DNA of 64,000 nucleotides from Vampirovibrionales bacterium (GTDB lineage Bacteria > Cyanobacteriota > Vampirovibrionia > Vampirovibrionales > JAJTHC01): positions 17,224 to 81,223 of the forward strand of contig JBIIZQ010000001.1 of the NCBI GenBank assembly GCA_044346175.1. The letters are read 5' to 3'. The position numbers and the translations under genes were made by a program. This document shows positions 18,872 through 56,785 of the stretch, piece after piece. Position 1 is the stretch's first letter, and every line of letters begins with the position of its first letter. The notes below the pieces were generated by a model. The model was not told where the DNA came from, made no database searches, and saw nothing but the letters and a program-made list of their open reading frames with translations.

Positions 18872-20977
18872 ATGATGTGGTTTCGTCAAAAAATTATCTA
18901 TTGGCGCGTTTCGCCTCAGGACTCAGCCCTCAGTATGCCTCTAACCGCTTGGTTAGAAGCCTATCAGCAGGTCGTATTGGAAGAACCTCAGGAACCCTAC
19001 CTCTCTCCTTTGAAAGAGGCATCAAGTCATACGCAGGTAAACAGCTCTACCGACACACATAACCTCTTTGAACCTTGGCAGCTTAAAGCCCAAGTAGCCA
19101 CACTGCACTACCCTATTAACCCTTTAGAGATTGAAGCACAAGTGTTTCATCAACTGGCTCAGGAAGTCGGCATTTATTTGCATCAAGTGACTTCCTTTCG
19201 TGCATTGCTAGAAGCCATGAGCTTACTACAACCCGACTGGGTCATGATTGGCGTAGAAGCCGCCACACTTCGAGAGAGTCATCTGACCTCCCCTGACCTC
19301 TTTGACCCCAACGAAGAAACGAATTTTAAAACTGCTGACCATGGTCTTTCGGCACTCATCCCCCATATTAAAAAAGTCCTCCTACTACAGCAACGCTTAT
19401 GGCTAGAACACCCCCTTTCACTGGGTAGTGGCTCGCCTGAACTCCAAAAAGAGCTGCCTTCAAGAATTCCTCTTTTTGTTTGGCACTTACCGCCTGATGC
19501 CAAAGTACTCTCCCAACAGGAACTTGAATTTGGATTTCAGCCGTTACCCCTTGCCTTGCCTGATATTGCCTCCCCTACAGTCTCCCCCGATGTTAGCACC
19601 TTGTGTGATTTCAACCACACAGAAGTGGAAGAGAAACCTCGTCCTAGTCCTGAAGCATCTGACAGCCCCCCTACAGGTTCTATTGCCTATCATTGGCTTG
19701 TGCTACAACACTTGTTTGATGGTGCTGATGACGTATTGGCACACAGCCTGAGTGAACTAGAAGTCACCATTCGTTTATTGGCCCATAGTCGTAGACTTGT
19801 GGAGTCACAACGATGGCCAGATACCCTCATGCCTGCTGGCAGCGTATTGCAACGTTTTTTACTACGGGAAGTAGCTCAAGCACAACTTGCCATGGCTGAA
19901 TCTTACCAGCAGCAACGGTACAATCCTTTATCATCTCAAGATACTTCCAAGATTGAAACCTCTGAGAGTATTGAAGCCTCCTTTGCACAGGTGGTCTCGA
20001 CCCCACAAGCTTGGATGATACTGTTTAAGATACGAGCTTGGGATACACTCAAGCGCCTTTATGGAAAATCTTTCAGCGATGAAGCAACCTTCCTCACCAC
20101 TCGGATGCTACTGCAAGAAACCCAAGCACATGAGGTGGTTTTCCAACTCACAGAAGATGTGTTTGTATGGTGGGGCAGTGGGAGCCAACGTGCTGAAGCC
20201 GTTGCCGATACCCTCACCCAACAGTGGCGGAGTATCTTACAGCATGAGCTATTCATGCCCTACGGTCAGGAACTCCCCGAGATGCTCGTAGAATCTGTCA
20301 ACCCACAATTAACGCAACGTTTCCCAGCCCCTATCCTAAAAGCGATTGTAGCACCTGTGAGCTGGCGTGGGCATGAACTGTTTCAACTAACCCCCTGTGA
20401 GGAAACATCTGCACATCTTCGTGATACGCTCTCGGAGGAATACCTCCAACGACTCAACTGCGTGACTGGGCTACTGGCTCAAATGCACAGCCAACTCAGT
20501 AGCATATGGCATCACCCTTCTTTACACTGGCTTACCCGCCATGGACAACTTGAAACCCTCGCGCCTTCAGGACAGGCTTTACACAAAAATGGTACACCCA
20601 CTTTAAAAACGGTATGGGTTGGTATGAAAGACCCCACCATGCAGCAACTCATGAGCTTGAGTTTGTCGCTAGAAGGGTGGCATGTGGTAGGCTTGGATGC
20701 CCTCATACAGCGATTTGAAAATACAGGACAATGCCCAACCATTCAAGTGCTACACCAATGGGTACTTGCCGATATGACCGAAGCCTATATGCCTTTTTTG
20801 GAAATGCTCCGATTACACTATCCGCAACTGACCCTTGTCACCTGTGGTACTGAAGTGCTACACAGAGACCGAGCTTTATACCAATTAGGAAGCGAGTTAC
20901 ACGCCACGCATCCTTTTTCACTGCTTGAACTCATGAAATGGGTCGCCCTCCGTTATCCCTCCTCACTGGCAGAGTAG
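18872..20977 (+). CDS. hypothetical protein (701 aa) with degenerate receiver-like segments
   Basis: No clear domain. The C-terminal segment IQVLHQWVLADMTEAYMPFLEMLRLHYPQLTLVTCGTE resembles the alpha3/beta4 region of a response-regulator receiver. A second weaker segment lies around DWVMIGVEAATL. Confidence 0.5.
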   Translation: MMWFRQKIIYWRVSPQDSALSMPLTAWLEAYQQVVLEEPQEPYLSPLKEASSHTQVNSSTDTHNLFEPWQLKAQVATLHYPINPLEIEAQVFHQLAQEVGIYLHQVTSFRALLEAMSLLQPDWVMIGVEAATLRESHLTSPDLFDPNEETNFKTADHGLSALIPHIKKVLLLQQRLWLEHPLSLGSGSPELQKELPSRIPLFVWHLPPDAKVLSQQELEFGFQPLPLALPDIASPTVSPDVSTLCDFNHTEVEEKPRPSPEASDSPPTGSIAYHWLVLQHLFDGADDVLAHSLSELEVTIRLLAHSRRLVESQRWPDTLMPAGSVLQRFLLREVAQAQLAMAESYQQQRYNPLSSQDTSKIETSESIEASFAQVVSTPQAWMILFKIRAWDTLKRLYGKSFSDEATFLTTRMLLQETQAHEVVFQLTEDVFVWWGSGSQRAEAVADTLTQQWRSILQHELFMPYGQELPEMLVESVNPQLTQRFPAPILKAIVAPVSWRGHELFQLTPCEETSAHLRDTLSEEYLQRLNCVTGLLAQMHSQLSSIWHHPSLHWLTRHGQLETLAPSGQALHKNGTPTLKTVWVGMKDPTMQQLMSLSLSLEGWHVVGLDALIQRFENTGQCPTIQVLHQWVLADMTEAYMPFLEMLRLHYPQLTLVTCGTEVLHRDRALYQLGSELHATHPFSLLELMKWVALRYPSSLAE

Positions 20978-21024
20978 CACGTAGCAAAAAGCACGCTTCC
21001 TCAGCTATCTTTTCCCTATCCCTA

Positions 21025-21936
21025 CAGATGATGCCCTCTCCTACACCCCAAACACCCTTAACCCCTGAACATTTAGCCCCTGAGGTTCTAGGGCTATTTC
21101 ATCCAGTGTCCCAACAAGAAGCACGCCCTCTTGTGCAACCTGCCTTTACGTCGTTTAGCTGGCAGCCTCAAAGCCATGCCTCCAGTAAACCTCTTGCAAT
21201 CATTCCCGCACGAGGCGGTAGTAAGCGTATCCCTCGCAAAAATATCAAGCCTTTCTGTGGGAAACCTATGCTTGCCTATACCATTGAGGTTGCCTTAGCC
21301 TGTGGTTGTTTTGAAGAGGTCATGGTCTCTACGGATGACCCTGAAATGGCAACCCTTGCCCAAAGCCTAGGCGCCAAGGTTCCTTTTTATCGAGAAACCA
21401 ACACAGCCCACGATATGGCAATGCTCGCCGATGTGCTAAGTGAGGTTCTTTACACTTATGATACGACCCTACAACGTTATTACCCTCAAGTAGCCTGTTT
21501 ACTACCCACAGCGGGGCCCTTCCTCACGGTAGAACGTTTACAAGAAGGCTACCAGCTTTTAAACCAACCCTATACACAAGAAGCAACACACTATCCTGAT
21601 AGTGTCGTACCCCTTGTCCCTTTTGGATACCCTGTATGGCGTGGGGTTGTACAACCGAATCCGAACACACCTGCTTTTACGATGGCCTGGCCTCAGTTTT
21701 ACAATACACGCTCGCAAGACCTTCCAACCCTGTGGCACGACGCAGCCCAGTTTTACTGGCTACGTACGGAAGCCTTACTTGTACATCAGCAACTGTTTAT
21801 GCCTTGTAGCGTTGGGCTTTACTTGAAGGAGTGGGAAGCTCAAGACATCGACACGCACGACGATTGGCACCGAGCCGAGCTGAAATACCAAACCCTACAA
21901 GCGATGCACCTAGCCCGCACTAGTACCAGTCGATAA
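21025..21936 (+). CDS. CMP-sugar (N-acylneuraminate/pseudaminic-type) cytidylyltransferase, CTP_transf_3 family
   Basis: LAIIPARGGSKRIPRKNIKPFCGKPMLAYTIE matches the NeuA/PseF P-loop. A ~65-aa Pro-rich N-terminal extension is present. The ORF track begins at 20938, overlapping the upstream gene. Confidence 0.65.
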   Translation, partial: QMMPSPTPQTPLTPEHLAPEVLGLFHPVSQQEARPLVQPAFTSFSWQPQSHASSKPLAIIPARGGSKRIPRKNIKPFCGKPMLAYTIEVALACGCFEEVMVSTDDPEMATLAQSLGAKVPFYRETNTAHDMAMLADVLSEVLYTYDTTLQRYYPQVACLLPTAGPFLTVERLQEGYQLLNQPYTQEATHYPDSVVPLVPFGYPVWRGVVQPNPNTPAFTMAWPQFYNTRSQDLPTLWHDAAQFYWLRTEALLVHQQLFMPCSVGLYLKEWEAQDIDTHDDWHRAELKYQTLQAMHLARTSTSR

Positions 21937-22978
21937 TACCATAATCAATATGCTGAATCATGGGTTCACCCGCTTCATCCAGCTTGAGTTGTCCTTGCTC
22001 ATCAAGTTGCACAAAGAGATTCCCTTGGTTTCTGTCCCCCAATACAAACCCAAGATTCTCTTTAAGAAGCTTGTTATAGGCATTCACTGATTTTTGCACT
22101 TTATCACGGTCTGTCTTACTTAAATTTGTATCACGCAAGGGTGTACCTTTTGCTGTATCCATCACTAAATATAACTTTTCAGGCTCCTGTTTTGGAATGA
22201 AATGCCCTTTATAATGCACCAAGTTCTCTCCGAGTTTAAGTTTTTGGGCAAGTTCAGGTTGATGGGTCTCAAAGTCTTTTAAACGTTTTTGAATGATTTG
22301 CATATTCTCAACTTCAGGGGGATGATAACTCCCAAGAACTTTAGTGGTAAATTTAGGAGAAACCTTCACCCCCTGATTAAACTCACCACCAAGATACGTA
22401 TAACCTGAACGCTCTGAAGTAAGTTGCGTAGGCATTTTTGTATCAGGGCGTACTGTGGCGGTTGCTCGTGCTTTTTTCGACATCAAAGCACCTGTTAAAT
22501 CAGCCCCCTGAAGGTCAGCCCCTTCAAAAGAAGTTTGATAAGTTTTACCTCGTTGCATCACATCATTGAGGTTTGCATGAGTCAGGTCTGTGTATTTCAG
22601 ATTGGCATCTTTGAAGGTTGCTCCCCTCAACTCTGCTTTGGAAAGATTCGCACGCTCAAGGTTGGCACCCTCTAAAAGGGTAGCTCGCTCGTGAAGTGCT
22701 AACCCCGAAAGATTCGCACGGGGGGCGTGAATCGTCGGTAATTTGACATTTGGTTTTTGCCGCTGGAGGTCTTTCTGACCTTCCTTAATGTACTGAGCCC
22801 GAGTTAAAATTGCTTGAGCGTCACTAGGGGTTGTAAAACGGGAAATATGCACCCGTCCTACACCGCTTCCTTTCCCTGACAACGCACGGCTGTATTTATG
22901 ATTCATACTGGCAAGGGTAAGATTTCTCCTTGCACCACTATAAACTTTTTGGGCGGCAGATAATACAGATGTAACCAT
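21920..22978 (-). CDS. pentapeptide-repeat protein with conserved C-terminal kinase-like domain (paralog A)
   Basis: A(N/D)LxG-type repeats (ANLSGLALHERATLLEGANLERANLSKAELRGATFKDANLKYTDLTHANLNDV). C-terminal region has GVKV..TK, YLVMDTAKGTPL, GDRNQGNLFV and IQHIDYG. Confidence 0.75.
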   Translation of the reverse strand: MVTSVLSAAQKVYSGARRNLTLASMNHKYSRALSGKGSGVGRVHISRFTTPSDAQAILTRAQYIKEGQKDLQRQKPNVKLPTIHAPRANLSGLALHERATLLEGANLERANLSKAELRGATFKDANLKYTDLTHANLNDVMQRGKTYQTSFEGADLQGADLTGALMSKKARATATVRPDTKMPTQLTSERSGYTYLGGEFNQGVKVSPKFTTKVLGSYHPPEVENMQIIQKRLKDFETHQPELAQKLKLGENLVHYKGHFIPKQEPEKLYLVMDTAKGTPLRDTNLSKTDRDKVQKSVNAYNKLLKENLGFVLGDRNQGNLFVQLDEQGQLKLDEAGEPMIQHIDYGIIDWY

Positions 22979-23007
22979 ATAGAGGGCTTTACACTCTCTT
23001 TCTCTAT

Positions 23008-23103
23008 CTCTCTCTTAAAAAATAGCGATGTCATCGCTTATAACAATCAAACCAACTCTCTCTTAAAAAATAGCGATGTCATCGCTTATAACAATCAAAC
23101 CAA
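23008..23103. repeat. perfect 48-bp tandem duplication (x2) containing a 15-nt palindrome AGCGATGTCATCGCT
   Basis: ctctctcttaaaaaatagcgatgtcatcgcttataacaatcaaaccaa appears twice head-to-tail between the two pentapeptide paralogs. Confidence 0.85.
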
Positions 23104-23143
23104 GAAGGTTTGTCTGATTGCCTCAGGGATGTCTCCTGTTAAC

Positions 23144-24316
23144 CTATCGCCAACTCACTGAGCCATAATCAATGTGTTGAATGAGAGGCTGTCCATCGGC
23201 ACCGAGTTTTACACGTCCTTGCTCGTTGAAGTGTACAAAGATATTACCAGAACTTCTATCCAAAAGCTCAAACCCTAGGTAGTGACTAAAAAAGTCATTA
23301 CGTAGTTGTGCCGCTTCACGAACTTTAGAACGCTCTGAAGGGGTTAAATGGGATAGGGCTTCACTCAAAGGCTGTCCTTGCGCCCTCTCCATAACAACAT
23401 AGTGATGCTCTGGATTTTTGGGGTCAATAAAAGTACCACGATAGTTTACAAGCATACTACGCAGTTCTTTTGCAACGTCTGGATTTGTTTTTTCTAACGT
23501 ACCCAAACGTTCTTCAATGCGTTGCATATGACTTAATTCTGTGGAAGAAGGCGGTAGTCTTTTGGTCACAAGACGCTTACCCACTTTAACACCCAAGTTA
23601 TTCTGACCCACATCATAACCATAACCACTGCGTTCAGGGGTGAAATGCTCAGGAAGTAAAGCGGTCTCTACATTTTTGGCATTTTTAAGTCTTTTCTCAG
23701 CAACCGTGGCTCTAAACAAACTGGCTTGATGTAAATCAGCATCCGTAAAATTGGTTTGATGCAAAATACCTCTTGATAAACGGGCTTGACTTAAATCACT
23801 GCCTTGTAAATCTGCCTGCGTTAAATTGGCTTTAATCATATCAGCACCTTTTAAATTGGCAGCCTTGAGTTTGGCTCCTGTTAAATTAGCTTCATAGGCA
23901 GAAACGGCTTGCAAATTCGCCTCTTCAAAATTGGCACCTCTAAGACTTGTACCAGCTAACTGAGCGGTGGGTAAATGAGCCTGTTTAAGATTAGCACGCT
24001 CTAAAATGGTTGATTTTTCAGGCAGGGTCAATCCTGTTAAGTTTGCCTTGGGTGCATGAATACGAGGCGTGTTTGTCAAACGTCCTGTCTGTTGTGCAAG
24101 CTCCATTTGTTGGTTTTTCAGCTGATGTGCTTGGCGAACAATGGTCTGAGCCTGCTTGGGTTGAATGGTAGGATGAATCCGTATATCTCCTATGCCACTG
24201 CCAACCCCCTCTGCAAAGCGATTAAAAGCCCGTTGCATTTTATTCAATGTGATACGAGTTTTTAAACCACTATTGAGTTTTTGATAAGGTATTTTGGGTA
24301 AGTTGGTGGTAAGCAT
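23144..24316 (-). CDS. pentapeptide-repeat protein with conserved C-terminal kinase-like domain (paralog B)
   Basis: Same architecture as 21920..22978, including a near-identical C-terminal end. Motifs: GVKVGKRLVTK, YVVMERAQGQPL, LDRSSGNIFV and IQHIDYG. Confidence 0.75.
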   Translation of the reverse strand: MLTTNLPKIPYQKLNSGLKTRITLNKMQRAFNRFAEGVGSGIGDIRIHPTIQPKQAQTIVRQAHQLKNQQMELAQQTGRLTNTPRIHAPKANLTGLTLPEKSTILERANLKQAHLPTAQLAGTSLRGANFEEANLQAVSAYEANLTGAKLKAANLKGADMIKANLTQADLQGSDLSQARLSRGILHQTNFTDADLHQASLFRATVAEKRLKNAKNVETALLPEHFTPERSGYGYDVGQNNLGVKVGKRLVTKRLPPSSTELSHMQRIEERLGTLEKTNPDVAKELRSMLVNYRGTFIDPKNPEHHYVVMERAQGQPLSEALSHLTPSERSKVREAAQLRNDFFSHYLGFELLDRSSGNIFVHFNEQGRVKLGADGQPLIQHIDYGSVSWR

Positions 24317-24526: not shown

Positions 24527-24599
24527 TGTAGGGGACGGTTTGTAACCGTCCCGTCGGTAGGGGGTGTCAGATTGCGGGAGGGTTAGAAACCCTCCCCTA
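24527..24599. repeat. family B GC-rich double hairpin (gtaggggacggttTGTaaccgtcccg ... gggagggttAGAaaccctcccctac)
   Basis: Two 9-bp stems of related sequence enclosed by an outer 7-bp inverted repeat gtagggg/cccctac. Sits immediately after the stop of 24597..25634. Confidence 0.6.
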
Positions 24600-25634
24600 C
24601 AGACAATTTTTCACTTTTACCTGAGAGGCAAGAAAACCACGGAGCCAGTGATAGGTTTCAGACAGCTGATGCCCAGAATGCTCAGGACATAACACTTGCC
24701 AAAAAGAAGTATCCTGATACATCTCACACTGGCTTAAAAGGCTTTGTAAACAGACACGTGTACTGTGTCCCATACACAGGTAATAGGTATACGTTTGCTT
24801 AAAATAGACAACCCACTCAGGGTAAGTTTTATATAGTGTCTCCTGCCATGCAAGCCAAGCTTTAGCACTTTCAGGACTCGTAAGCCATACCACCCGCCAT
24901 GGATGGTGTTTTAAACTCTCGTACCAAGCATGGGCATGGCGTACGGTGAGTGCGTCCATCGTGTAAGGTTCACTACGATATAAGGTTGTCACCTCAGGAG
25001 AGGGAAGATGATGCGTATCGCTGCATTGTATCAATGCCTGTAGGGTTTCATCACGTGCGAGGTCTCCTCGAGGGAGCCACAATCGCACTTGGGCTTGTGG
25101 GTGTGTAAGCGTAGAAAGGTGGTTTTTTGCCCACAAACGAATCCAGCCACCCTGTGCGATACTTTCGGGGGAGTCGTCTTTCCTTGAAGGGGGTACCCAT
25201 GGCTCAGGATGACACAAGGCATGTAATTGATGCGTTTGAAGATACAAGCTTTGCCAACGGCGAGAGGTACTCTCGCCAATACATGCCACCCGCCACAACA
25301 ATGACTCGGGTACGGGAGAGGGTGTACTTAAACGATTAGCGTGTGTTAACCAATAACACAATGCTTGATGGGCATACAATGCCACATTAGGGCTGGCTAA
25401 AAAGAACCAATAATACTCAAGACCTAAGCCACCCCATTGAGAGGAGGGTTTCGGTAACAAACCCCGTAAAGGAGGTATATTTTGAATATCAAGAGGATAT
25501 ATTTTTCTTGGATAAACCCATACAGTGGACGCATCAGGATGTCCGCACTGTTGTAGGGTGGTATGCCATCGTTCCGTTTGTGCATCGTCTGGTCGTATAA
25601 GCCAAAGCCAAGGTGTGCCTTCATAAGAAAACAT
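24597..25634 (-). CDS. hypothetical protein; weak resemblance to uroporphyrinogen-III synthase (HemD) family
   Basis: Segments VACIGESTSRRW, LWLPRGDLARDETLQALIQ and VVWLTSPESAKAW loosely match HemD half-domains. Low confidence. Confidence 0.35.
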   Translation of the reverse strand: MFSYEGTPWLWLIRPDDAQTERWHTTLQQCGHPDASTVWVYPRKIYPLDIQNIPPLRGLLPKPSSQWGGLGLEYYWFFLASPNVALYAHQALCYWLTHANRLSTPSPVPESLLWRVACIGESTSRRWQSLYLQTHQLHALCHPEPWVPPSRKDDSPESIAQGGWIRLWAKNHLSTLTHPQAQVRLWLPRGDLARDETLQALIQCSDTHHLPSPEVTTLYRSEPYTMDALTVRHAHAWYESLKHHPWRVVWLTSPESAKAWLAWQETLYKTYPEWVVYFKQTYTYYLCMGHSTRVCLQSLLSQCEMYQDTSFWQVLCPEHSGHQLSETYHWLRGFLASQVKVKNCL

Positions 25635-25905
25635 AACGGTTGCTCTTTAAAACGTCTTTTTCTGATATGGAAATCACACTAGGTTTCATGATACACTAAA
25701 AGTGTATTTTTATGGGGTTAAAGTCATAAACAGGTATACTATCACCTGTCTTTTTCAACAGCATCAACCTTTCCAACCAATTTCAACAGATTTTCGTACA
25801 CTTCGATACAACCACGGCACATAAGAATTGCTCTTTGTGCGGAGGGGGTACTTGTATCTCTTTCCTTTTCTGAACTTTCTTTTACATCGTGAAGGTCATT
25901 CTGCT

Positions 25906-27426
25906 ATGGTATCACTTGCTTTACAACCTTACCCTCTCCACACGCTTCGTCCTGCAACGACCCCAACACAACGTGTTGTAAAAACGGACTTTGATGAGTC
26001 CGTCACGCAACGTCAAGAAGTGACGATAGAAGGCAAAACAAAAACCCAGAGTATTATCCCCTTTGCCACCGTAGAAGCTACAAAACAACTTCCTGATAAC
26101 ACGAGTTTTATTGTCAGTACGAGCCGTCCACTTGCCAGCTTAAAGAAAGTCGCAGGACAACTCGACAAAACCTCGCCTGGTGCCTTAGATGCCATGAAAC
26201 CCATGGATGCTCTCCTTGTAGGCACAGGTGCCCAGCTGTTTATCAATCAAGTAGGACCTGAAAAAAAGCATCTTCCCAATAGTGAGTTTATCAAGAGGCT
26301 TTCTTACGCTTACCCAGGGGAGCATCATGAATTGATTACCCCTTCCAAGACGTATCAAAAATTACTGACATGGTGTAATAACCAAAAAGCGAAGGAGCTT
26401 GGACTTCCTCCCGTCACGGATTGGGACAATACCAAAGCATTTCTGGCCATGACACGCTACCTTAAAGCAAAAGGCTATGAACCACTGAAGACCCCTTTTC
26501 ACATTGACCGCAGAACCGATATTACCGCACCTAAAGAAATATGGGTCAAAAGCTTCTCAAACAACGCCCCTCTTGCAAAAGACCCCAACCATAAAACCAT
26601 CTTACCTAAAGGACACCCTGATAAAACCACGATTGGGATTTTTCTTCGTAGTGACAATGACATAGAAGATGCCCAAGGGAAACCCATTCCTGGTAAAACA
26701 ACCCACGATGCCGACTCTACGATTTTAGTGGCTCCTCTTGCCTATTTGAGTTCGGAGCATCATGACGAAAAATATTACCAGCCATGGCAACTGCAACAAG
26801 TTCAAAAAGACCTCTACACGGCTTACTTACAAGAGGTGCGTGCAAAGGACTATCCTCTTTCAACAGGGATTGCCAATGATAAGGTCAGCATGCCTAAAGA
26901 GAAAAACGCTCAAGAAGCCGCACTCTATGAATTAAGAGATGCCACTAAAACCCAAGACCGTGCCTACCTTGAAATGGGTCCCAGTAGCAAGGAAGCCGCC
27001 CTGTCTATGTCACTGAGTGTATTACATCAAGATTATCATCGCAGTACAAACCGTCCTTCAGTGGAAAAAGTCGTCACACTAGGAGATGGTAACAATGATA
27101 TTGGCATGCTAACCGCCGACAAAGTGACACTCTATAAACCCACCACCAAAGATGCAAGCGCTTGGGAACCCCTCTCCAAGCATCCTCTTGAGGTGTACGG
27201 TGTCGCCCTAGGACATAACGCCAAGGTACTCAAAACGCTCACACAAAAGCAATATGAAGCCCTTGCCCAAAAAGGGAAATTTATCCATAGCGTTCAAGGA
27301 GAACTCCCTGAGGTATTGAAAGAATCCTCAGCTCAAATCGTCCAAGTACCTCATGATGATGCTGGCAGCCATAGCGAATGGGCAGCTGGTATTCAAACCA
27401 TGAAAGCACTCAATATTCTGGGTTAA
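25906..27426 (+). CDS. HAD-IIB (Cof/SPP-like) phosphatase with large insertion, paralog 1
   Basis: Motif I TDFDESV (degenerate DxDxT), motif II FIVSTSR, motif IV VTLGDGNNDIGML. A ~250-aa insertion sits between motifs II and III. The ORF track begins at 25828. Confidence 0.6.
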   Translation: MVSLALQPYPLHTLRPATTPTQRVVKTDFDESVTQRQEVTIEGKTKTQSIIPFATVEATKQLPDNTSFIVSTSRPLASLKKVAGQLDKTSPGALDAMKPMDALLVGTGAQLFINQVGPEKKHLPNSEFIKRLSYAYPGEHHELITPSKTYQKLLTWCNNQKAKELGLPPVTDWDNTKAFLAMTRYLKAKGYEPLKTPFHIDRRTDITAPKEIWVKSFSNNAPLAKDPNHKTILPKGHPDKTTIGIFLRSDNDIEDAQGKPIPGKTTHDADSTILVAPLAYLSSEHHDEKYYQPWQLQQVQKDLYTAYLQEVRAKDYPLSTGIANDKVSMPKEKNAQEAALYELRDATKTQDRAYLEMGPSSKEAALSMSLSVLHQDYHRSTNRPSVEKVVTLGDGNNDIGMLTADKVTLYKPTTKDASAWEPLSKHPLEVYGVALGHNAKVLKTLTQKQYEALAQKGKFIHSVQGELPEVLKESSAQIVQVPHDDAGSHSEWAAGIQTMKALNILG

Positions 27427-27591: not shown

Positions 27592-27802
27592 CCTCCCACA
27601 ACTTACGTGAATGTCCATACAACCTATTACCCACACACCACAGCAACAAAAGGTTCCTACAAAGTAAAAGAGGGATGTTTGTTTCTTTGTGTGTGGGTCG
27701 TATACTATCCATACTTACATACCTTACCATAGTCATCATGACCATAGTCATTATTCACCCTTCTTAAAGCTCACCCTTATTACATTACAGATAAACACAT
27801 TC

Positions 27803-29338
27803 ATGCCCTTACTTAACGCACAACACGCTCTATTTTCAGTGATGTCTGCTAGTCATCGTACAGCTCGCTTTGGAGCAACCTCCTTTCCGAAAGCTGTTGT
27901 TAACACTGATTTTGACGGCACTATCACGGCAACTCGCATGACCAAAAACCCTGATAACACCTTCACAACACAGACTATTATTCCTCAAGCAACCATTGAG
28001 GCAACGCAAGCACTGCATCCTGATACCACTTTTATTGTGAGTACAGGACGCTCACTCGCAAGTTTTAAAAATGCCGCCATGAGACATCAAAAGGCTTTAG
28101 ATGCCATGCGTCCTATGGATGCGCTTTTACTGGCACGAGGAACAGACATGTTTATCAATCAAGTTCCTTCCAAAGATGGTAAAACCATGGTCAAACTGCC
28201 AAACAGTACGTTTATCGGTCGACTCTCCTACCATTACCCAGGCGACCACAAAGAACTCATTACCCCTTCAAGCACTTATCAAAAACTTCTAAGGTGGCAT
28301 CTTAACGGAAAAGAAGGGGTATCAAAAGAATCTTCCCTAGAAACGTGGGATGTTAGCAAGATTTTTCTTGCCATGACCAACCACCTCAAAATGCAAGGCT
28401 ATACGCCCTTACAGCGTCCTTGGCATATGGATTTAATCCAACGAGGGCTAGAGCCTCAACAGATTTGGGTTAAAACGTTTCAAAATGTCCCATCTACCCA
28501 AAAAACTGCTCAGGCCGTTAATCGAGACGTAAGTATAGGCGTTTTTGTACGTGAAGATGCCGATTTGCGGGATGAACATCTCCGCCCCATTCCGCATAAA
28601 GCAACCATTAAAACCGACAACATGATACTGATTGCTCCCTTACCCTGTATGAGTAGCAAGTATGCCCACCAACATTACTACCAGCCATGGCAACTAGGCC
28701 AAGTCAAAAAAGACCTCAAAGAAGCTTACGAAAAAGAAGTTATTGCAAAATCCAATCTTTTGGCACCTCCCATTTTAAGCGACACTGAGCAGGAACTACA
28801 ACAAGCGTCCCAACACACCCAAGAGCCTCTTAAAGCTGATATTCCTTTAATACCCACTGCAAAGCGTTTTGATAGAGCCTATATGGAGATAGGCCCCACC
28901 TCAAAAGAGGAGGCACTTGCCTTTTCTCTTAGCGTCCTTGAGGCACAACATCATGAAAAAGCCCATCCACGTATGAAGCATGCCGTCACACTGGGAGACG
29001 GTCAAAATGATGTCGGCATGCTCACGGCCGACAAAATCACACTTTATAAGCCTAAAACAAAAGATGGCACGGATTGGGAAGCGATACCCGAGCATCAAGT
29101 AAGTGTGCATGGTGTTGCCTTGGGGAAAAAAGAAGAAATCTTGAAAACCCTTCAAGACAGGAAATATAAGCCACTTGCCAAGCAAGGTAAGCTCATCCAT
29201 AGTATTCAAGGTCAAGCACCAAAGATACTCCACAATACGCATGCAAAAATTGTGTCGGTACCTGAACATGACCCTGACCAACACAGTGAATGGGCGGCAG
29301 GCATTCACGCCATGAAGACCCTTAATGTATTAGTCTAG
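27803..29338 (+). CDS. HAD-IIB (Cof/SPP-like) phosphatase with large insertion, paralog 2
   Basis: Canonical motif I TDFDGTITA, motif II FIVSTGR, motif IV VTLGDGQNDVGML. C-terminus SEWAAGIHAMKTLNVLV is shared with paralog 1. The ORF track begins at 27689. Confidence 0.6.
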   Translation: MPLLNAQHALFSVMSASHRTARFGATSFPKAVVNTDFDGTITATRMTKNPDNTFTTQTIIPQATIEATQALHPDTTFIVSTGRSLASFKNAAMRHQKALDAMRPMDALLLARGTDMFINQVPSKDGKTMVKLPNSTFIGRLSYHYPGDHKELITPSSTYQKLLRWHLNGKEGVSKESSLETWDVSKIFLAMTNHLKMQGYTPLQRPWHMDLIQRGLEPQQIWVKTFQNVPSTQKTAQAVNRDVSIGVFVREDADLRDEHLRPIPHKATIKTDNMILIAPLPCMSSKYAHQHYYQPWQLGQVKKDLKEAYEKEVIAKSNLLAPPILSDTEQELQQASQHTQEPLKADIPLIPTAKRFDRAYMEIGPTSKEEALAFSLSVLEAQHHEKAHPRMKHAVTLGDGQNDVGMLTADKITLYKPKTKDGTDWEAIPEHQVSVHGVALGKKEEILKTLQDRKYKPLAKQGKLIHSIQGQAPKILHNTHAKIVSVPEHDPDQHSEWAAGIHAMKTLNVLV

Positions 29339-50525: not shown

Positions 50526-52565
50526 TTACTGCACAGGATTTTGAGCATCTTTCGCCAAGCGTGCTTTCGTCCATAGTGCGGCAATATAAGGTTCCAAAAT
50601 ACCAAGCAATAGTACATTGGTCATCATGGCAGAGAAACCGACCCAAATATTAGCCTTAAGTGTTTTCTGTTGGAGAGACCCAGCAGGCATTAAATGCTTA
50701 ATTTCATCCACAGCTCTTAAACGTCCTTGGTGCATAAGTTGCGAACCAAAGGTTTTGTCTGCCAAGGGGCCAAAGACGTATTTTTGTAAGAGTGGTGTAC
50801 CCAAAATCCAGAAGCCCCAACCACCATAGCCATCCACAGCACGCTCTCTAAACTCATTGGGTGTACGAGAGTTTAAAAGCCTAGACATAATCAATAAAGC
50901 AAACCCCCCCGCCATCTGCTGTTGAGTTGTGTGCGGAAAGTTTTTACAGAAATCATAGGTACTTTTAAGATACTCTTTGGTGTATTTACCCACGTGCTGA
51001 CGTGCCTCTTGAGGTAACATCTTGCGCAACATCTCAGGCAAATAAACCTTTAATTCTTGGGTATTAAATACACCTGAAGCAGGAACTAAGGGTAACAAAA
51101 GCAAGGGTGCCAGCTTGGCAGCCTGCTTCCATTGTCCTTGCTGTAAAAGACGGGTATACCAACTGTCTGAATACTTACGCTCTAACTCAGCGGAAGGCAA
51201 GGCCTCAGGAGCAGAAGTTGCAGTAGAAACAGCCGTAGAAGTGGCAGCAGGAGCAGACGACGAAGAAGCTACAGCCTCACCAAAACGCTGTGCTTGAACC
51301 CCAAAAAGAGGGGTACTGCCACGAGAAGCATCTGCCATGAACTGCCCAGAAACCCCATTCGTAGTACCTCCTAAATAATGTGCCAGTTTCTCAGGAGGCG
51401 TAGGAGGTGCCACCACTTGTTCTGGGGGGGGGGCCAAACGAGCAGGTACAGCTGTATTAGCGGGTAATGTCTCTGGTTCAGCAACTTGGTGTGCCTCTGT
51501 ATCAGGACGGCGGTCACCCGTAATGAAACTAACAGGCTTTTGAACTTTAAGTGCATTTTCAGCAGGATAACCCTTCACATGAAACGCATGGTTCATAAAA
51601 CTATTGATGAGTGCTGGCGATAAAAAAGAAGCAGTCATACCTGCTGCAATACCCCAAAGCTGCCTATCCTTCACCCGTGTGGTTTGCTCAGCATACTTGA
51701 GTGCCATGTCCCCAAAGTAAGTAATGTTAGGATGTTGTTGCCTTAATGCAGGCATTGCCTGTCGCAACCCTTGCACAAAACCATGAAGTTCTTCGAGATA
51801 AGTAGGTAATGCCATACGAGCCGTTCTACCATCTGGCTGAGGAATATTGAGGTGCCAATCACTCTTCTGCAACTGACGCATGAGTGCAGCGGCCTGTGTT
51901 TTAAAATGTCCTTCAGCTTGGGGGTCTTTACCCAATGCCTGATAAAGCATCGTCTTCAGTGCATCACGAGAGGTTTGTATACGCTCCGTATGACCAGAGG
52001 TCAAGATTTCTGGAGGCACAAGGTTCTGAAATAAATCATCCGCCATACGATGAGAGAGTTGTAATACAGCCTCCTCGGGCTTAGCCTCCATTTTCCGAGT
52101 ACGTTCTACGAGTTGCTTCATGTGGTGGTGTGCATGCGTCAAGACGGCACGAGAAGGATACTGATTCGCAAAGTGGGGGAAAGCGTGCATTTTACCGATG
52201 CGTGTGGCCACAATCCCAGACATGACGTTATCTGTAAGGATAGAAAAACCTTCCCTAAGAATACGGTCTAACCCCGCAACAGGACTAAACTGATTACTCC
52301 CTCCCATAAAGCCTCTTGAACTATCCACCAAAGTTCTTAAAAGCCCCATCCCAAAAAAATCTTCAACAATCATCGCACGGGTACGATTACCAGCAATGAC
52401 GTTCATGAAGCCCGCAACACGCTTGGTTGCAGGGTCAAGCCGAAGTGGCACAGGGGGGATGCGTGTTTCAACAGCGGAGGCTACTGTCATTGCTTTAGGC
52501 ATAAGCCCCAATGACGGTGAATGGACAGAAGAAGCCGAGGGAGATAAGCCGACAGAAGCAAACAT
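50526..52565 (-). CDS. hypothetical large protein (679 aa), Pro/Ala-rich linker and C-terminal transmembrane segment
   Basis: First ORF of the run. PARLAPPPEQVVAPPTPPEK linker and C-terminal hydrophobic ANIWVGFSAMMTNVLLLGIL. No identifiable domain. Confidence 0.5.
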   Translation of the reverse strand: MFASVGLSPSASSVHSPSLGLMPKAMTVASAVETRIPPVPLRLDPATKRVAGFMNVIAGNRTRAMIVEDFFGMGLLRTLVDSSRGFMGGSNQFSPVAGLDRILREGFSILTDNVMSGIVATRIGKMHAFPHFANQYPSRAVLTHAHHHMKQLVERTRKMEAKPEEAVLQLSHRMADDLFQNLVPPEILTSGHTERIQTSRDALKTMLYQALGKDPQAEGHFKTQAAALMRQLQKSDWHLNIPQPDGRTARMALPTYLEELHGFVQGLRQAMPALRQQHPNITYFGDMALKYAEQTTRVKDRQLWGIAAGMTASFLSPALINSFMNHAFHVKGYPAENALKVQKPVSFITGDRRPDTEAHQVAEPETLPANTAVPARLAPPPEQVVAPPTPPEKLAHYLGGTTNGVSGQFMADASRGSTPLFGVQAQRFGEAVASSSSAPAATSTAVSTATSAPEALPSAELERKYSDSWYTRLLQQGQWKQAAKLAPLLLLPLVPASGVFNTQELKVYLPEMLRKMLPQEARQHVGKYTKEYLKSTYDFCKNFPHTTQQQMAGGFALLIMSRLLNSRTPNEFRERAVDGYGGWGFWILGTPLLQKYVFGPLADKTFGSQLMHQGRLRAVDEIKHLMPAGSLQQKTLKANIWVGFSAMMTNVLLLGILEPYIAALWTKARLAKDAQNPVQ

Positions 52566-53625: not shown

Positions 53626-54998
53626 GGATTCGATGGTACCTGTGTGTGTAAAACCTTATTTTTAAAGTTTTGATAGTCTTTATCGGCTAACAATTTATTC
53701 ACCCATACAGGACCAAATCCAAGCCCAACCGAAGTAAGCCCCAAGGCAAGAATATGTGCTGGGACGGAAGAAGCGACGGCATAACGAGCTAAAAACTCGG
53801 AAGCTGGAGGAACCTTTGACTCAAGATGATGTGCCACACGGTAAGCATCCATGGCTTGAAGGGTATGCCAGACCTTCTGTAACGAGGTTTGGTCAATATG
53901 GTTTTTCACCCCCTCCTGCAAAGCTAACTTTGCCTTATCATGGAGCGGCGCTTCAAGAGGGATGTCCACTGTTTGAATCAGCTGGTGCATGTCTTCTAAA
54001 AGCTTAGGGGGGAGCTTAAGCTTTTGGAGTACTTCTTGCAAGGGTAGATGAGGATGCGCCATACTTGTATGCGTCAAACGCTGTGTGGCTTCCATCATAA
54101 GCGTTGCCTTATGGCATTGATTTAACACCTTCGCTTTACCAAATTCAAGCACCTGATGCCCCGATGTTTTGACTTCTTGAGCCACGGCTCGAGGTATCAT
54201 TTGCCAATGCTTGATATGTTGTTTCTGATGAAAAAAGAGCTGCGAGAGGTCTTCTGCTTTTGTCAGGCGATACGCTTCCTTAAGCTGTTGTAAAGACAAC
54301 GCCTCACCATGTAATGGCGACTTTAACTGTACTTGCCGCAAGCGTTGCAGTGCATTTGTAAAGACATGGTCTCGTAGAGGGTCAAGTGCAAAAAGAAAGA
54401 AAAATAGCGAGGTAATATCACGACGCAATGCATCCATGACCTCACGGGTGTCGTGCGTACGCCACCATTCTTGCCAAGGGGTATGCTTTTTCTCAGGCGT
54501 TTTAGGTGTTTCAAGAGGCAAAGCACGCTTCGCCGCAAATAAAGCCCGAAAAGCAACACACCCTGAGTAGAATTGAATGATTTGAGGTCCCCAAGCAGGA
54601 CGGAGAATTTTAGTATTCCCTAATCGATAAAACACTTTATAGTCAGTATCAGTCAGTTTTTCCGTCAGGTCTTTGGCAAACCAAGTGAAGGGTTTACTGA
54701 AAGCTCCTAACTTGAGGGTATCATCAATGTGCGTTTGCCAACGTCCTGCAATCTGCATGGCACCTGCACGTGTTTTTAACATCTGCTTAGAGAGACGTGT
54801 CAATACAGTTTCAAGCGGCGTGTCAGGCTTAATTTTAAAAGCCTCTAGTGCCACAGGCATGTCCACAGCCGCCATGGGTGCAGGCGTTGGAGCGATTGGC
54901 ATCTCAGAGCCGAAACGAGCGTTAGGCGTACGACGGAATCGAAATCCAGCGGGATAAGACAGACTCAAAGAGGACGACATGTTAGGATTCATCAACAA
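53622..54998 (-). CDS. hypothetical protein (458 aa)
   Basis: Long ORF overlapping the upstream gene stop by 7 nt, consistent with an operon with 54992..56785. Confidence 0.5.
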   Translation of the reverse strand: MLMNPNMSSSLSLSYPAGFRFRRTPNARFGSEMPIAPTPAPMAAVDMPVALEAFKIKPDTPLETVLTRLSKQMLKTRAGAMQIAGRWQTHIDDTLKLGAFSKPFTWFAKDLTEKLTDTDYKVFYRLGNTKILRPAWGPQIIQFYSGCVAFRALFAAKRALPLETPKTPEKKHTPWQEWWRTHDTREVMDALRRDITSLFFFLFALDPLRDHVFTNALQRLRQVQLKSPLHGEALSLQQLKEAYRLTKAEDLSQLFFHQKQHIKHWQMIPRAVAQEVKTSGHQVLEFGKAKVLNQCHKATLMMEATQRLTHTSMAHPHLPLQEVLQKLKLPPKLLEDMHQLIQTVDIPLEAPLHDKAKLALQEGVKNHIDQTSLQKVWHTLQAMDAYRVAHHLESKVPPASEFLARYAVASSVPAHILALGLTSVGLGFGPVWVNKLLADKDYQNFKNKVLHTQVPSNP

Positions 54999-56785
54999 GA
55001 GCCTCGTTCTGTCGTTAAAACGGTGGTATCAGAAAATAAGCTTGCACTGGCAATATTAGGCATAAAACGAGGCATAAGCGAGGATGAAGCAGGGACTTGC
55101 ACAGATGTACTCGACGACGCTTCCCTCTTTACCTCTTTTGATTTATCCTGTCTTGGTTTATCTTGGCTTGATTTATCTGGCGGGGTCACTGCAGAGGGTT
55201 TTGCCACGGCTTGCCTGAAAGAACCCCGAGAGGTGTCGGAAGCTTCTAGTGCAGGAAGTGCCTCAGATACATTACCTGTGCCTTCCATACCAGCTTTGAG
55301 ATGGTCAATACGCATTAAGCGGTTTGCAGGATAAACATGGGAAGTTTTCAAAACCCAAGAAGCAAGCCAAAACAGCCAACCTACACCTAAAGCCGTATTT
55401 GCCAAAGAAAAGCCAAGCTTATGACCCAGCATTTTTTGATAAAGGGTCTCGCTTGTCTGAATCAGGGAAGCATTGGATACTTCTGATAAGGGTTTTACAA
55501 AGCCCGTTAAACTAGGATGTGAGGCACTTGTTTTTGCCACAGTGTCTAACGCCAAGCGCTGGACATACGCAGGGAAAAGCTTCAGTTCTCTAAGGACTGT
55601 TTCAACAGGCAGTTCTTTAATGAGCGGTACAGAAGCACTTAAGCCCTCACCCACTGGCTTAAGTGAAGGTTTATGCCACAAGGTGGGCAAGAGGTCTTTT
55701 TGCCACAAATGGGTAGTGGTACGGGATGCTTCATTGACTTTTTTGGTCGCTTCAGCAATATGCGTTGCTAAGGTATCAAGTGTAGCTTCCTGTGCAGCAG
55801 TCCAAGCCTTAAAGTGAGGATGCCCTTGTAAATCAAGGGGACGTTTTAAATGATGCTTTAAATGCCCCTCATGCAGCGTCAACAAGCGGGTTTCCCACTG
55901 TGTTAACAATCGAGCCAATGTGGTTGTTTTTTGAGGTTCATGAGATAAACGAACGGGGTGAGCTAAGAGTGCTTTGTGAGCATCGGGGCGAAGGTGCTGC
56001 TGAAGAAAATGTGCAAAATCTTCTCGGTTATTTTGAATACGTTCAGACAAAGGCACAGAAGCTTTCTGCCAAGGTTGTTCAGGACGCTGTGCTAAAAAGT
56101 GATGATACGTATGCTTGTAAGCTTTTAAGGTCTCATAGGGCATGAAAGTAGCATCCCCAGCTGGTAGCTTACGCCTTAGCAAAAAATAAGACGCTGTGGG
56201 AACAAATAGTACCCCTGGGCCTGTGGCAAACTCACGTTGCGACTCTTCAGAAAAATTAGGCCAATTGAGAGCCTTGAGTTGTCGCCATTTCGACAGTAAA
56301 ACACGTTGGGAAAGAGGGCGTGATTGTAGGTCGGTGTCTTTTTGTGGGTCGTAGGGCTTAGCACCTCTTGCCAAAGAAACCCCGATACGAGGTATCCATA
56401 AGCTACCCACATCAAGGGTAATAATGGATGCCATAAAACTACTGGCCACCCATCCTAAAAAAGGACTCGTCAATTTGGGGAAACTTGCCTTAGTAATGGT
56501 ATCCCCGATACCTTGGCATAGTTGTTGAGCCTTAGAGGGTGTCCACAAACTCGCCGCTGTGTGCACTACATCCGAAGACGCATCACCAAAGCGATTTGCA
56601 ACATGATGAGGCTGCCAAGATTGGTTTTTCTCAGCCCGAGGCTCCTCTGTGGTCTCATGTTTCATGAGGACAGGAGGCGGTGAGGGATGCCTAAAAGGCA
56701 GGAAGGCAGAATAAGGGCGTGAATACATACTAATGCAACAAAAAATAGAGGAGGTTATGTTCAACAAGAAACTGAACGACACCAT
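54992..56785 (-). CDS. hypothetical protein (597 aa) with transmembrane segments and Ser/Lys-rich C-terminus
   Basis: ATG at 56785. Hydrophobic segments FLGWVASSFMASIITL and ALGVGWLFWLASWVL. Confidence 0.5.
   Translation of the reverse strand: MVSFSFLLNITSSIFCCISMYSRPYSAFLPFRHPSPPPVLMKHETTEEPRAEKNQSWQPHHVANRFGDASSDVVHTAASLWTPSKAQQLCQGIGDTITKASFPKLTSPFLGWVASSFMASIITLDVGSLWIPRIGVSLARGAKPYDPQKDTDLQSRPLSQRVLLSKWRQLKALNWPNFSEESQREFATGPGVLFVPTASYFLLRRKLPAGDATFMPYETLKAYKHTYHHFLAQRPEQPWQKASVPLSERIQNNREDFAHFLQQHLRPDAHKALLAHPVRLSHEPQKTTTLARLLTQWETRLLTLHEGHLKHHLKRPLDLQGHPHFKAWTAAQEATLDTLATHIAEATKKVNEASRTTTHLWQKDLLPTLWHKPSLKPVGEGLSASVPLIKELPVETVLRELKLFPAYVQRLALDTVAKTSASHPSLTGFVKPLSEVSNASLIQTSETLYQKMLGHKLGFSLANTALGVGWLFWLASWVLKTSHVYPANRLMRIDHLKAGMEGTGNVSEALPALEASDTSRGSFRQAVAKPSAVTPPDKSSQDKPRQDKSKEVKREASSSTSVQVPASSSLMPRFMPNIASASLFSDTTVLTTERGSC

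Follow-up and report, generated by a model that had tools for sequence, protein, structure and literature searches.

The window analysed here is the whole 64,000-nucleotide stretch of contig JBIIZQ010000001.1 (assembly GCA_044346175.1, Vampirovibrionales bacterium, a non-photosynthetic relative of the cyanobacteria), and the subject of this report is a pair of adjacent genes on its minus strand. In the list of open reading frames (ORFs), par2 occupies 23144..24316 and encodes 390 amino acids (aa), and par1 occupies 21920..22978 and encodes 352 aa; the names are used for the products as well, and coordinates are those of the window throughout. Each protein comprises a helical N-terminal region, a pentapeptide-repeat beta-helix and a minimal kinase-like domain, with a shorter repeat tract in par1. 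The original prediction, made from the DNA letters, described the two as tandem paralogs of this three-part layout with protein-kinase-like motifs at the C-terminus. BLASTP aligns par1 and par2 end to end with 38% identity (E=1e-75), the layout is found in both with a C-terminal domain of about 160 aa, and all the motifs quoted earlier are there, at coordinates verified by translation. The par2 sequence is identical to the public entry P0001, and its start codon is supported by an ortholog alignment that begins at Met1. Both proteins are soluble and basic (isoelectric point 9.6-9.9) and no hydrophobic segment was found in either, the maximum 19-residue Kyte-Doolittle hydropathy being 0.31. On balance, par1 and par2 are best read as diverged paralogs from a tiny, lineage-restricted family of three-module proteins that carry a minimal protein-kinase-like catalytic core.

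The N-terminal module covers aa 1-80 of par1 (22739..22978, minus strand) and aa 1-84 of par2 (24065..24316, minus), the latter being homologous to the par1 helical region by alignment. In the AlphaFold model of par1, two long helices (residues 2-33 and 51-74) flank a short strand (42-44) with a predicted local distance difference test (pLDDT) of 84-94. No Pfam hit was obtained for the par2 module and no sequence match for the par1 module among PDB sequences. The pentapeptide-repeat tract follows at aa 81-166 of par1 (22481..22738, minus; about four coils) and aa 85-210 of par2 (23687..24064, minus; about six coils). Its identity is secure, since PF00805 scores 61.3 bits in par1 and 83.2 bits in par2 against a cutoff of 20.2 and the repeat units keep a 5-residue register, e.g. 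par2 aa 143-178. The length of the beta-helix differs among family members, at about 85, 125 and 185 residues, the longest corresponding to about nine coils in a homolog. A conserved N-terminal G(S/R)G(V/I)G motif was considered as the true Gly-rich loop of the kinase, with the beta-helix as an insertion; this candidate was rejected, as the motif is missing in the member P0125 and a separate Gly-rich loop lies ahead of beta2/beta3 within the C-terminal domain itself.

The C-terminal domain extends over aa 189-352 of par1 (21923..22414, minus) and aa 228-390 of par2 (23147..23635, minus), and its assignment to the protein-kinase-like fold is solid at the level of structure prediction. An AlphaFold2 model of the C-terminal 185 residues of par2, built from a four-sequence alignment, has a pLDDT of 76.9 and a predicted template modelling score (pTM) of 0.71, with residues 34-185 confident, and the full-length model of par1 (mc4ab80767439) has a pLDDT of 80.6. 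The best 50 Foldseek matches to the predicted domain are all kinases, including CurKC, WbdD, SRPK1 and Ark1, so the fold proposed originally was recovered by modelling. The predicted elements run beta2, beta3, two helices, beta4, beta5, hinge, alphaD, alphaE, beta6, catalytic loop, beta7, extra strands, beta8 and DYG, which is the kinase order. A bilobal core, with an N-lobe sheet, a helix before beta4, a hinge, alphaD/alphaE, a catalytic loop and beta7-beta8, is present in the prediction.

Although kinase-domain identity among members is merely 36-56%, G237, N240, G242, K244, K252, E260, D353, R354, N358 and Q380-H-I-D383 (par2 numbering) are invariant. Conservation of the D, N and K residues, earlier noted between the two paralogs, was checked in the orthologues and extends to K252, D353, N358 and D383 in all members. 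The Gly-rich-loop-like GQNNLGVK of par2 (23585..23608, minus; aa 237-244) contains the first four invariant positions and corresponds to GEFNQGVK in par1 (22364-22387, minus); hhalign pairs the par2 segment GQNNLGVKV with the Gly-loop GQNRACGRV of SpkB-type kinases. The candidate beta3 (VAIK) Lys is K252 (23561..23563, minus), with K213 as its counterpart in par1 (22340-22342, minus). It stands as an invariant Lys, and because it lies mid-strand in predicted beta3 (residues 44-49 of the domain model) it is taken from topology as the probable ATP-binding Lys. The helix Glu of 'RIEERL', which had been described as conserved, is not, and E260, where that helix begins, is the invariant Glu instead. 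A hinge motif, YLVME, lies in the predicted core.

The catalytic-loop-like segment reads DRSSGNIFV in par2 (23234..23260, minus; aa 353-361) and DRNQGNLFV in par1 (22010-22036, minus). hhalign matches D353 to the HRD Asp and N358 to the Asn of the catalytic loop, as expected for the catalytic D...N motif that had been proposed, and HMMER pairs the two residues likewise in its alignment to RSK2. The loop is followed by an extended beta7-beta8 segment (23180..23233, minus; aa 362-379) that exceeds its counterpart in canonical kinases by about 10-12 residues and appears as a 10-residue template gap in hhalign and as extra short strands in both models. The distance from the catalytic-loop Asp to the DYG Asp is 30 residues, compared with about 18 in canonical kinases, and the long spacing remarked on earlier is real. 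The DFG equivalent is QHIDYG (23162..23179, minus, aa 380-385 in par2; 21938-21955, minus, in par1), which hhalign pairs with VDFG and which reads HIDFG in the member P0123. 'KLD', which HMMER pairs with 'TDFG' of RSK2, was also considered as the DFG equivalent and was rejected because it is variable (KLGADG in par2, VKW-EGG in P0122) whereas HID(Y/F)G is invariant.

The proteins end shortly after this motif. Five residues follow QHIDYG in par2, the range in the family is 5-7 residues with 13 in the homolog P0002, and five members stop at the same place. No coding remnant of the rest of the C-lobe was found downstream. The C-terminal truncation is therefore genuine, and only Hanks subdomains I-VII are kept; subdomains VIII-XI (activation segment/APE, alphaF Asp, alphaH-I) and an HRDxKxxN loop were not found in the members. 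Restriction of the kinase fold to subdomains I-VII, as defined for OspG/NleH, is a likeness to those proteins, which show that kinase activity is possible without subdomains VIII-XI (PMC12756638). There is, however, no significant sequence relationship: the OspG_kinase model (PF22303) reaches 13.8 bits (E=0.06; cutoff 27), and this in a single member out of nine. The par family also differs from OspG/NleH in its DRxxGN loop, in the insertion before DYG and the chain end that closely follows it, and in the fusion of the core C-terminal to a pentapeptide-repeat beta-helix.

Comparison with curated families and known structures gave matches of low score. The Pkinase/Hanks models (PF00069/PF07714) gave no hit even at E<=1. 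All sub-threshold Pfam matches are to protein-kinase-like families and cover the catalytic-loop/DFG region. ABC1 (PF03109) scores 19.2 bits in par1 (E=7e-4; cutoff 22.9) and 13.2 bits in P0123, with no match in other members, and covers profile positions 119-215 only. PI3_PI4_kinase (PF00454) scores 14.5 and 13.9 bits in two members (cutoff 27.1; E=0.033), from the catalytic loop to DFG only. In a search of PDB sequences with the family profile, nothing better than E>=0.08 was obtained; the kinase matches lie at E~0.08-0.6, with RSK2, NEK2, PknA and PknB at E~0.1-0.5. A 99-aa fragment of par1 is automatically annotated by JGI as an ABC1/UbiB-like kinase. Taken alone, this sequence evidence is weak but points uniformly towards kinases.

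The best of these matches are to ABC1/UbiB and PI3K/PI4K. As an alternative to a protein kinase, the domain could phosphorylate small molecules, lipids or glycans (APH, ABC1-UbiB, PI3K-PI4K or WbdD-like) and not proteins, and the beta-helix would then be a rigid spacer or ruler. Similarity to the two families is seen in the D-x-x-x-G-N-I-(L/F)-V and DR...N / HID(F/Y)G motifs, and the DRxxGN loop looks more like ABC1/APH or PI3K-type loops. Yet both scores stay below their cutoffs, and the par family lacks both the N-terminal elements specific to ABC1/UbiB and PI3K/PI4K and their large helical C-terminal parts. We regard this alternative as possible but rather doubtful.

Several further observations weigh against a catalytically active protein-kinase-like core. 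No curated kinase family model reaches its threshold with these proteins, and the AlphaFold models rest on shallow alignments of 4-7 sequences. Both points favour the view that the kinase resemblance is spurious and that AlphaFold forced a kinase shape, from a few motifs, onto a lineage-specific domain of another fold; we consider this highly improbable. The alignment to SpkB-type kinases described below has an hhalign probability of only 4%. The full-length model has a pTM of 0.55, a low-confidence value for how its beta-helix and N-terminal helices pack on the kinase core. The Glu partner of the beta3 Lys is ambiguous, E260 being invariant and E275 mostly conserved. The catalytic loop reads (L/G/D)DRxxGN, with variable residues ahead of the Asp, no His/Arg before it and no Lys at D+2. 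A Lys at D+2 is a hallmark of Ser/Thr protein kinases.

The ambiguous alphaC Glu and the variable residues before the catalytic Asp, together with a chain end right past DYG that leaves no alphaF or spine anchor, would suit a pseudokinase, a nucleotide-binding scaffold or a kinase fold with other chemistry, such as AMPylation (SelO) or glutamylation (SidJ); atypical kinase folds with other chemistries are known in bacterial effectors (PMC9950578). Pseudokinases, however, usually lose at least one core catalytic residue, whereas all four and the Gly-rich loop are invariant here despite fast divergence elsewhere, and OspG/NleH are active without subdomains VIII-XI (PMC12756638). A pseudokinase or other chemistry is thus judged unlikely, and an active minimal core remains the favoured reading.

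Kinase and pentapeptide repeats in one protein are an established cyanobacterial architecture, represented by SpkB/slr1697 and others (PMC2176072, PMC1262709), and SpkB-type kinases were among the full-length search hits (P0003, P0019, P0047). Like them, the par family joins a kinase fold to pentapeptide repeats in a single polypeptide, and both occur in the cyanobacterial phylum, taken broadly. SpkB-type proteins have a canonical full-length N-terminal Pkinase domain followed by long C-terminal repeats, whereas the order is reversed in the par family, whose kinase domain is truncated and has no Pkinase match. An hhalign comparison of the eight-sequence family profile with three SpkB-type Pkinase domains is collinear and marginal (pairwise E=0.0098). 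The combination that the original prediction did not recognise is therefore known in itself; the reversed order and the truncated, divergent core are new. SopA/NleL also place a pentapeptide-repeat beta-helix before a catalytic domain, but the similarity is confined to the beta-helix, the catalytic domain being a HECT-like E3 ligase and not a kinase fold. Alr5209 and other stand-alone cyanobacterial pentapeptide-repeat proteins, unlike the par family, have no attached catalytic domain. A literature search combining pentapeptide repeat, kinase-like and effector found no paper. The par proteins are rated here as a new, minimal protein-kinase-like family of novel architecture, one that belongs to no curated kinase family.

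The family is rare. A search with the full-length protein was swamped by unrelated pentapeptide-repeat proteins (1682 hits, two of them covering the full length), and the C-terminal domain alone was therefore used as the query. A word-indexed search of 5.8 billion proteins with this domain returned one further protein, and when 1.84 billion cluster representatives were searched exhaustively with HMMER, nine members came out at E<=0.001: par2, a par1 fragment, two proteins of one Vampirovibrionales metagenome-assembled genome (MAG), four metagenome fragments and the repeat-less P0127. Among 185,579 species-representative genomes, the family was found only in that MAG (GCA_046080605.1, JBJTUH01), with two copies on two contigs, and a JGI metagenome contig scan gave no additional loci. 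The two proteins of the MAG are P0002 (451 aa) and P0121 (also P0129, 349 aa). The NCBI gene call for P0121 (283 aa), the par1 ortholog, appears N-terminally truncated; the corresponding ORF (L005 157-1248) and the Logan copy P0129 include the conserved N-terminal helical module. P0127, a 279-aa metagenome protein, is a distant kinase-domain relative (E=1.5e-4) without pentapeptide repeats; it carries LLDLNSGNLFV and what may be an LVD with canonical spacing, extends C-terminally by about 130 aa, and judged from its sequence may represent a less truncated ancestral form.

NusA of the window genome is 89% identical to that of MAG GCA_046080605.1 and 57-61% identical to NusA of other Vampirovibrionales, Vampirovibrio chlorellavorus and Melainabacteria, values that place the window genome in the same order, Vampirovibrionales. 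In the other MAG, par1 and par2 each have a separate ortholog (50% identity for par1, 42% for par2), and the duplication is therefore older than the split of the two genomes. Since ortholog identity is 42-50% compared with 89% for NusA, the family is fast-evolving. The tandem par1-par2 arrangement is found in the window only.

A mechanism can be proposed in which the three modules act together. Module 1 is the predicted N-terminal pair of long helices and module 2 a right-handed pentapeptide-repeat beta-helix of variable length, while module 3 is a minimal kinase-like core of about 160 aa made up of the Gly-rich loop, beta3 Lys, helices, hinge, alphaD/alphaE, DRxxGN, the long beta7-beta8 segment and HID(Y/F)G. 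The predicted domain would bind ATP-Mg and transfer the gamma-phosphate, most likely onto a protein. The substrate-binding half of the C-lobe is absent from the predicted core, as in OspG/NleH, and for this reason the beta-helix and N-terminal helices in cis, or else a bound partner, would dock the substrate and/or stabilise the active state. By analogy, the beta-helix of SopA/NleL presents targets to the C-terminal catalytic domain, and that of the par proteins may do likewise.

The spacer between par2 and par1 contains a perfect tandem repeat of two 48-nucleotide copies (23008..23103), found by repeat search and by terminator-like matches. On the coding (minus) strand each copy forms a terminator-like hairpin, AGCGATGACATCGCT, followed by a T-run, and because of these repeats it is suggested from sequence that par1 and par2 are transcribed separately. 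A third, weaker hairpin lies at 23096-23112, just upstream of the repeat copies. Upstream of par2, positions 24527-24601 hold a 27-nucleotide inverted repeat (89% complementary) with two GC-rich hairpins, between the gene for a 345-aa protein and par2, and an AT-rich stretch separates it from the par2 start codon. The 345-aa ORFan was considered as a conserved operon partner and rejected, as it is missing beside the par2 ortholog in the other MAG. At the 3' end of par1, a convergent cytidylyltransferase gene (20938-21936, plus; CTP_transf_3, NeuA/KdsB-like) overlaps par1 by 17 nucleotides; its product is extended N-terminally by about 85 aa. The same convergent arrangement occurs in the other MAG (L005 1250-2242), where the cytidylyltransferase is 70% identical, and this gene is the only syntenic partner of par1.

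A second pair of tandem paralogs lies immediately upstream, at 25828-27426 and 27689-29338 (plus strand), encoding 532 and 549 aa with 47% identity (E=8e-147); these carry DxD...GDGxND HAD-like motifs, with weak Pfam Hydrolase_3 (HAD) hits only. The region thus contains two adjacent, duplicated and poorly annotated gene pairs. Six large ORFs (345-701 aa) had no Pfam match at the thresholds used: 18872-20977 (+), 24597-25634 (-; the 345-aa gene), 38001-39536 (-), 50526-52565 (-), 54992-56785 (-) and 59705-61453 (+). They are interspersed with genes that include the housekeeping PNPase, IMPDH, NusA, a class I tRNA synthetase and aspartate kinase. PADLOC gave no anti-phage defence hit for par1, par2 or four neighbouring genes.

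A cultured member of the Vampirovibrionales is a predator of Chlorella that bears a type IV secretion system (PMC4451040). In that light, the par proteins could be the smallest self-contained kinase-like core yet, with the beta-helix and helical hairpin replacing half of the C-lobe, and could be delivered as a fast-evolving effector phosphorylating a prey (algal) target, making them a kinase counterpart of the SopA/NleL effectors; we consider this distinctly unlikely. The Vampirovibrionales genome, the divergence of the orthologs relative to NusA and the duplicated, lineage-restricted nature of the family are in its favour. Against it, no secretion genes were identified among the scanned ORFs of the window, housekeeping genes are among the neighbours, PADLOC shows no defence association, and the C-termini show no Arg-rich signal, the tails being acidic or neutral. 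To our knowledge, the host lineage has no known type III secretion system, unlike the setting of OspG/NleH, which are type III secreted and activated by E2~ubiquitin. An effector role is possible but unsupported, and a predatory habit of this MAG would be an analogy at the level of the order.

With nine sequences among 1.84 billion the family is very small, and its broader impact would be limited unless the biochemistry is unusual. If active, the par proteins would form a new protein-kinase-like family reduced to the universal core for nucleotide binding and catalysis, with everything else delegated to a beta-helix, which would bear on the minimum kinase fold needed for catalysis and on the role of pentapeptide-repeat domains. 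They would also be the first candidate signalling or effector enzyme specific to one clade of the Vampirovibrionales, a little-studied sister of the photosynthetic cyanobacteria.

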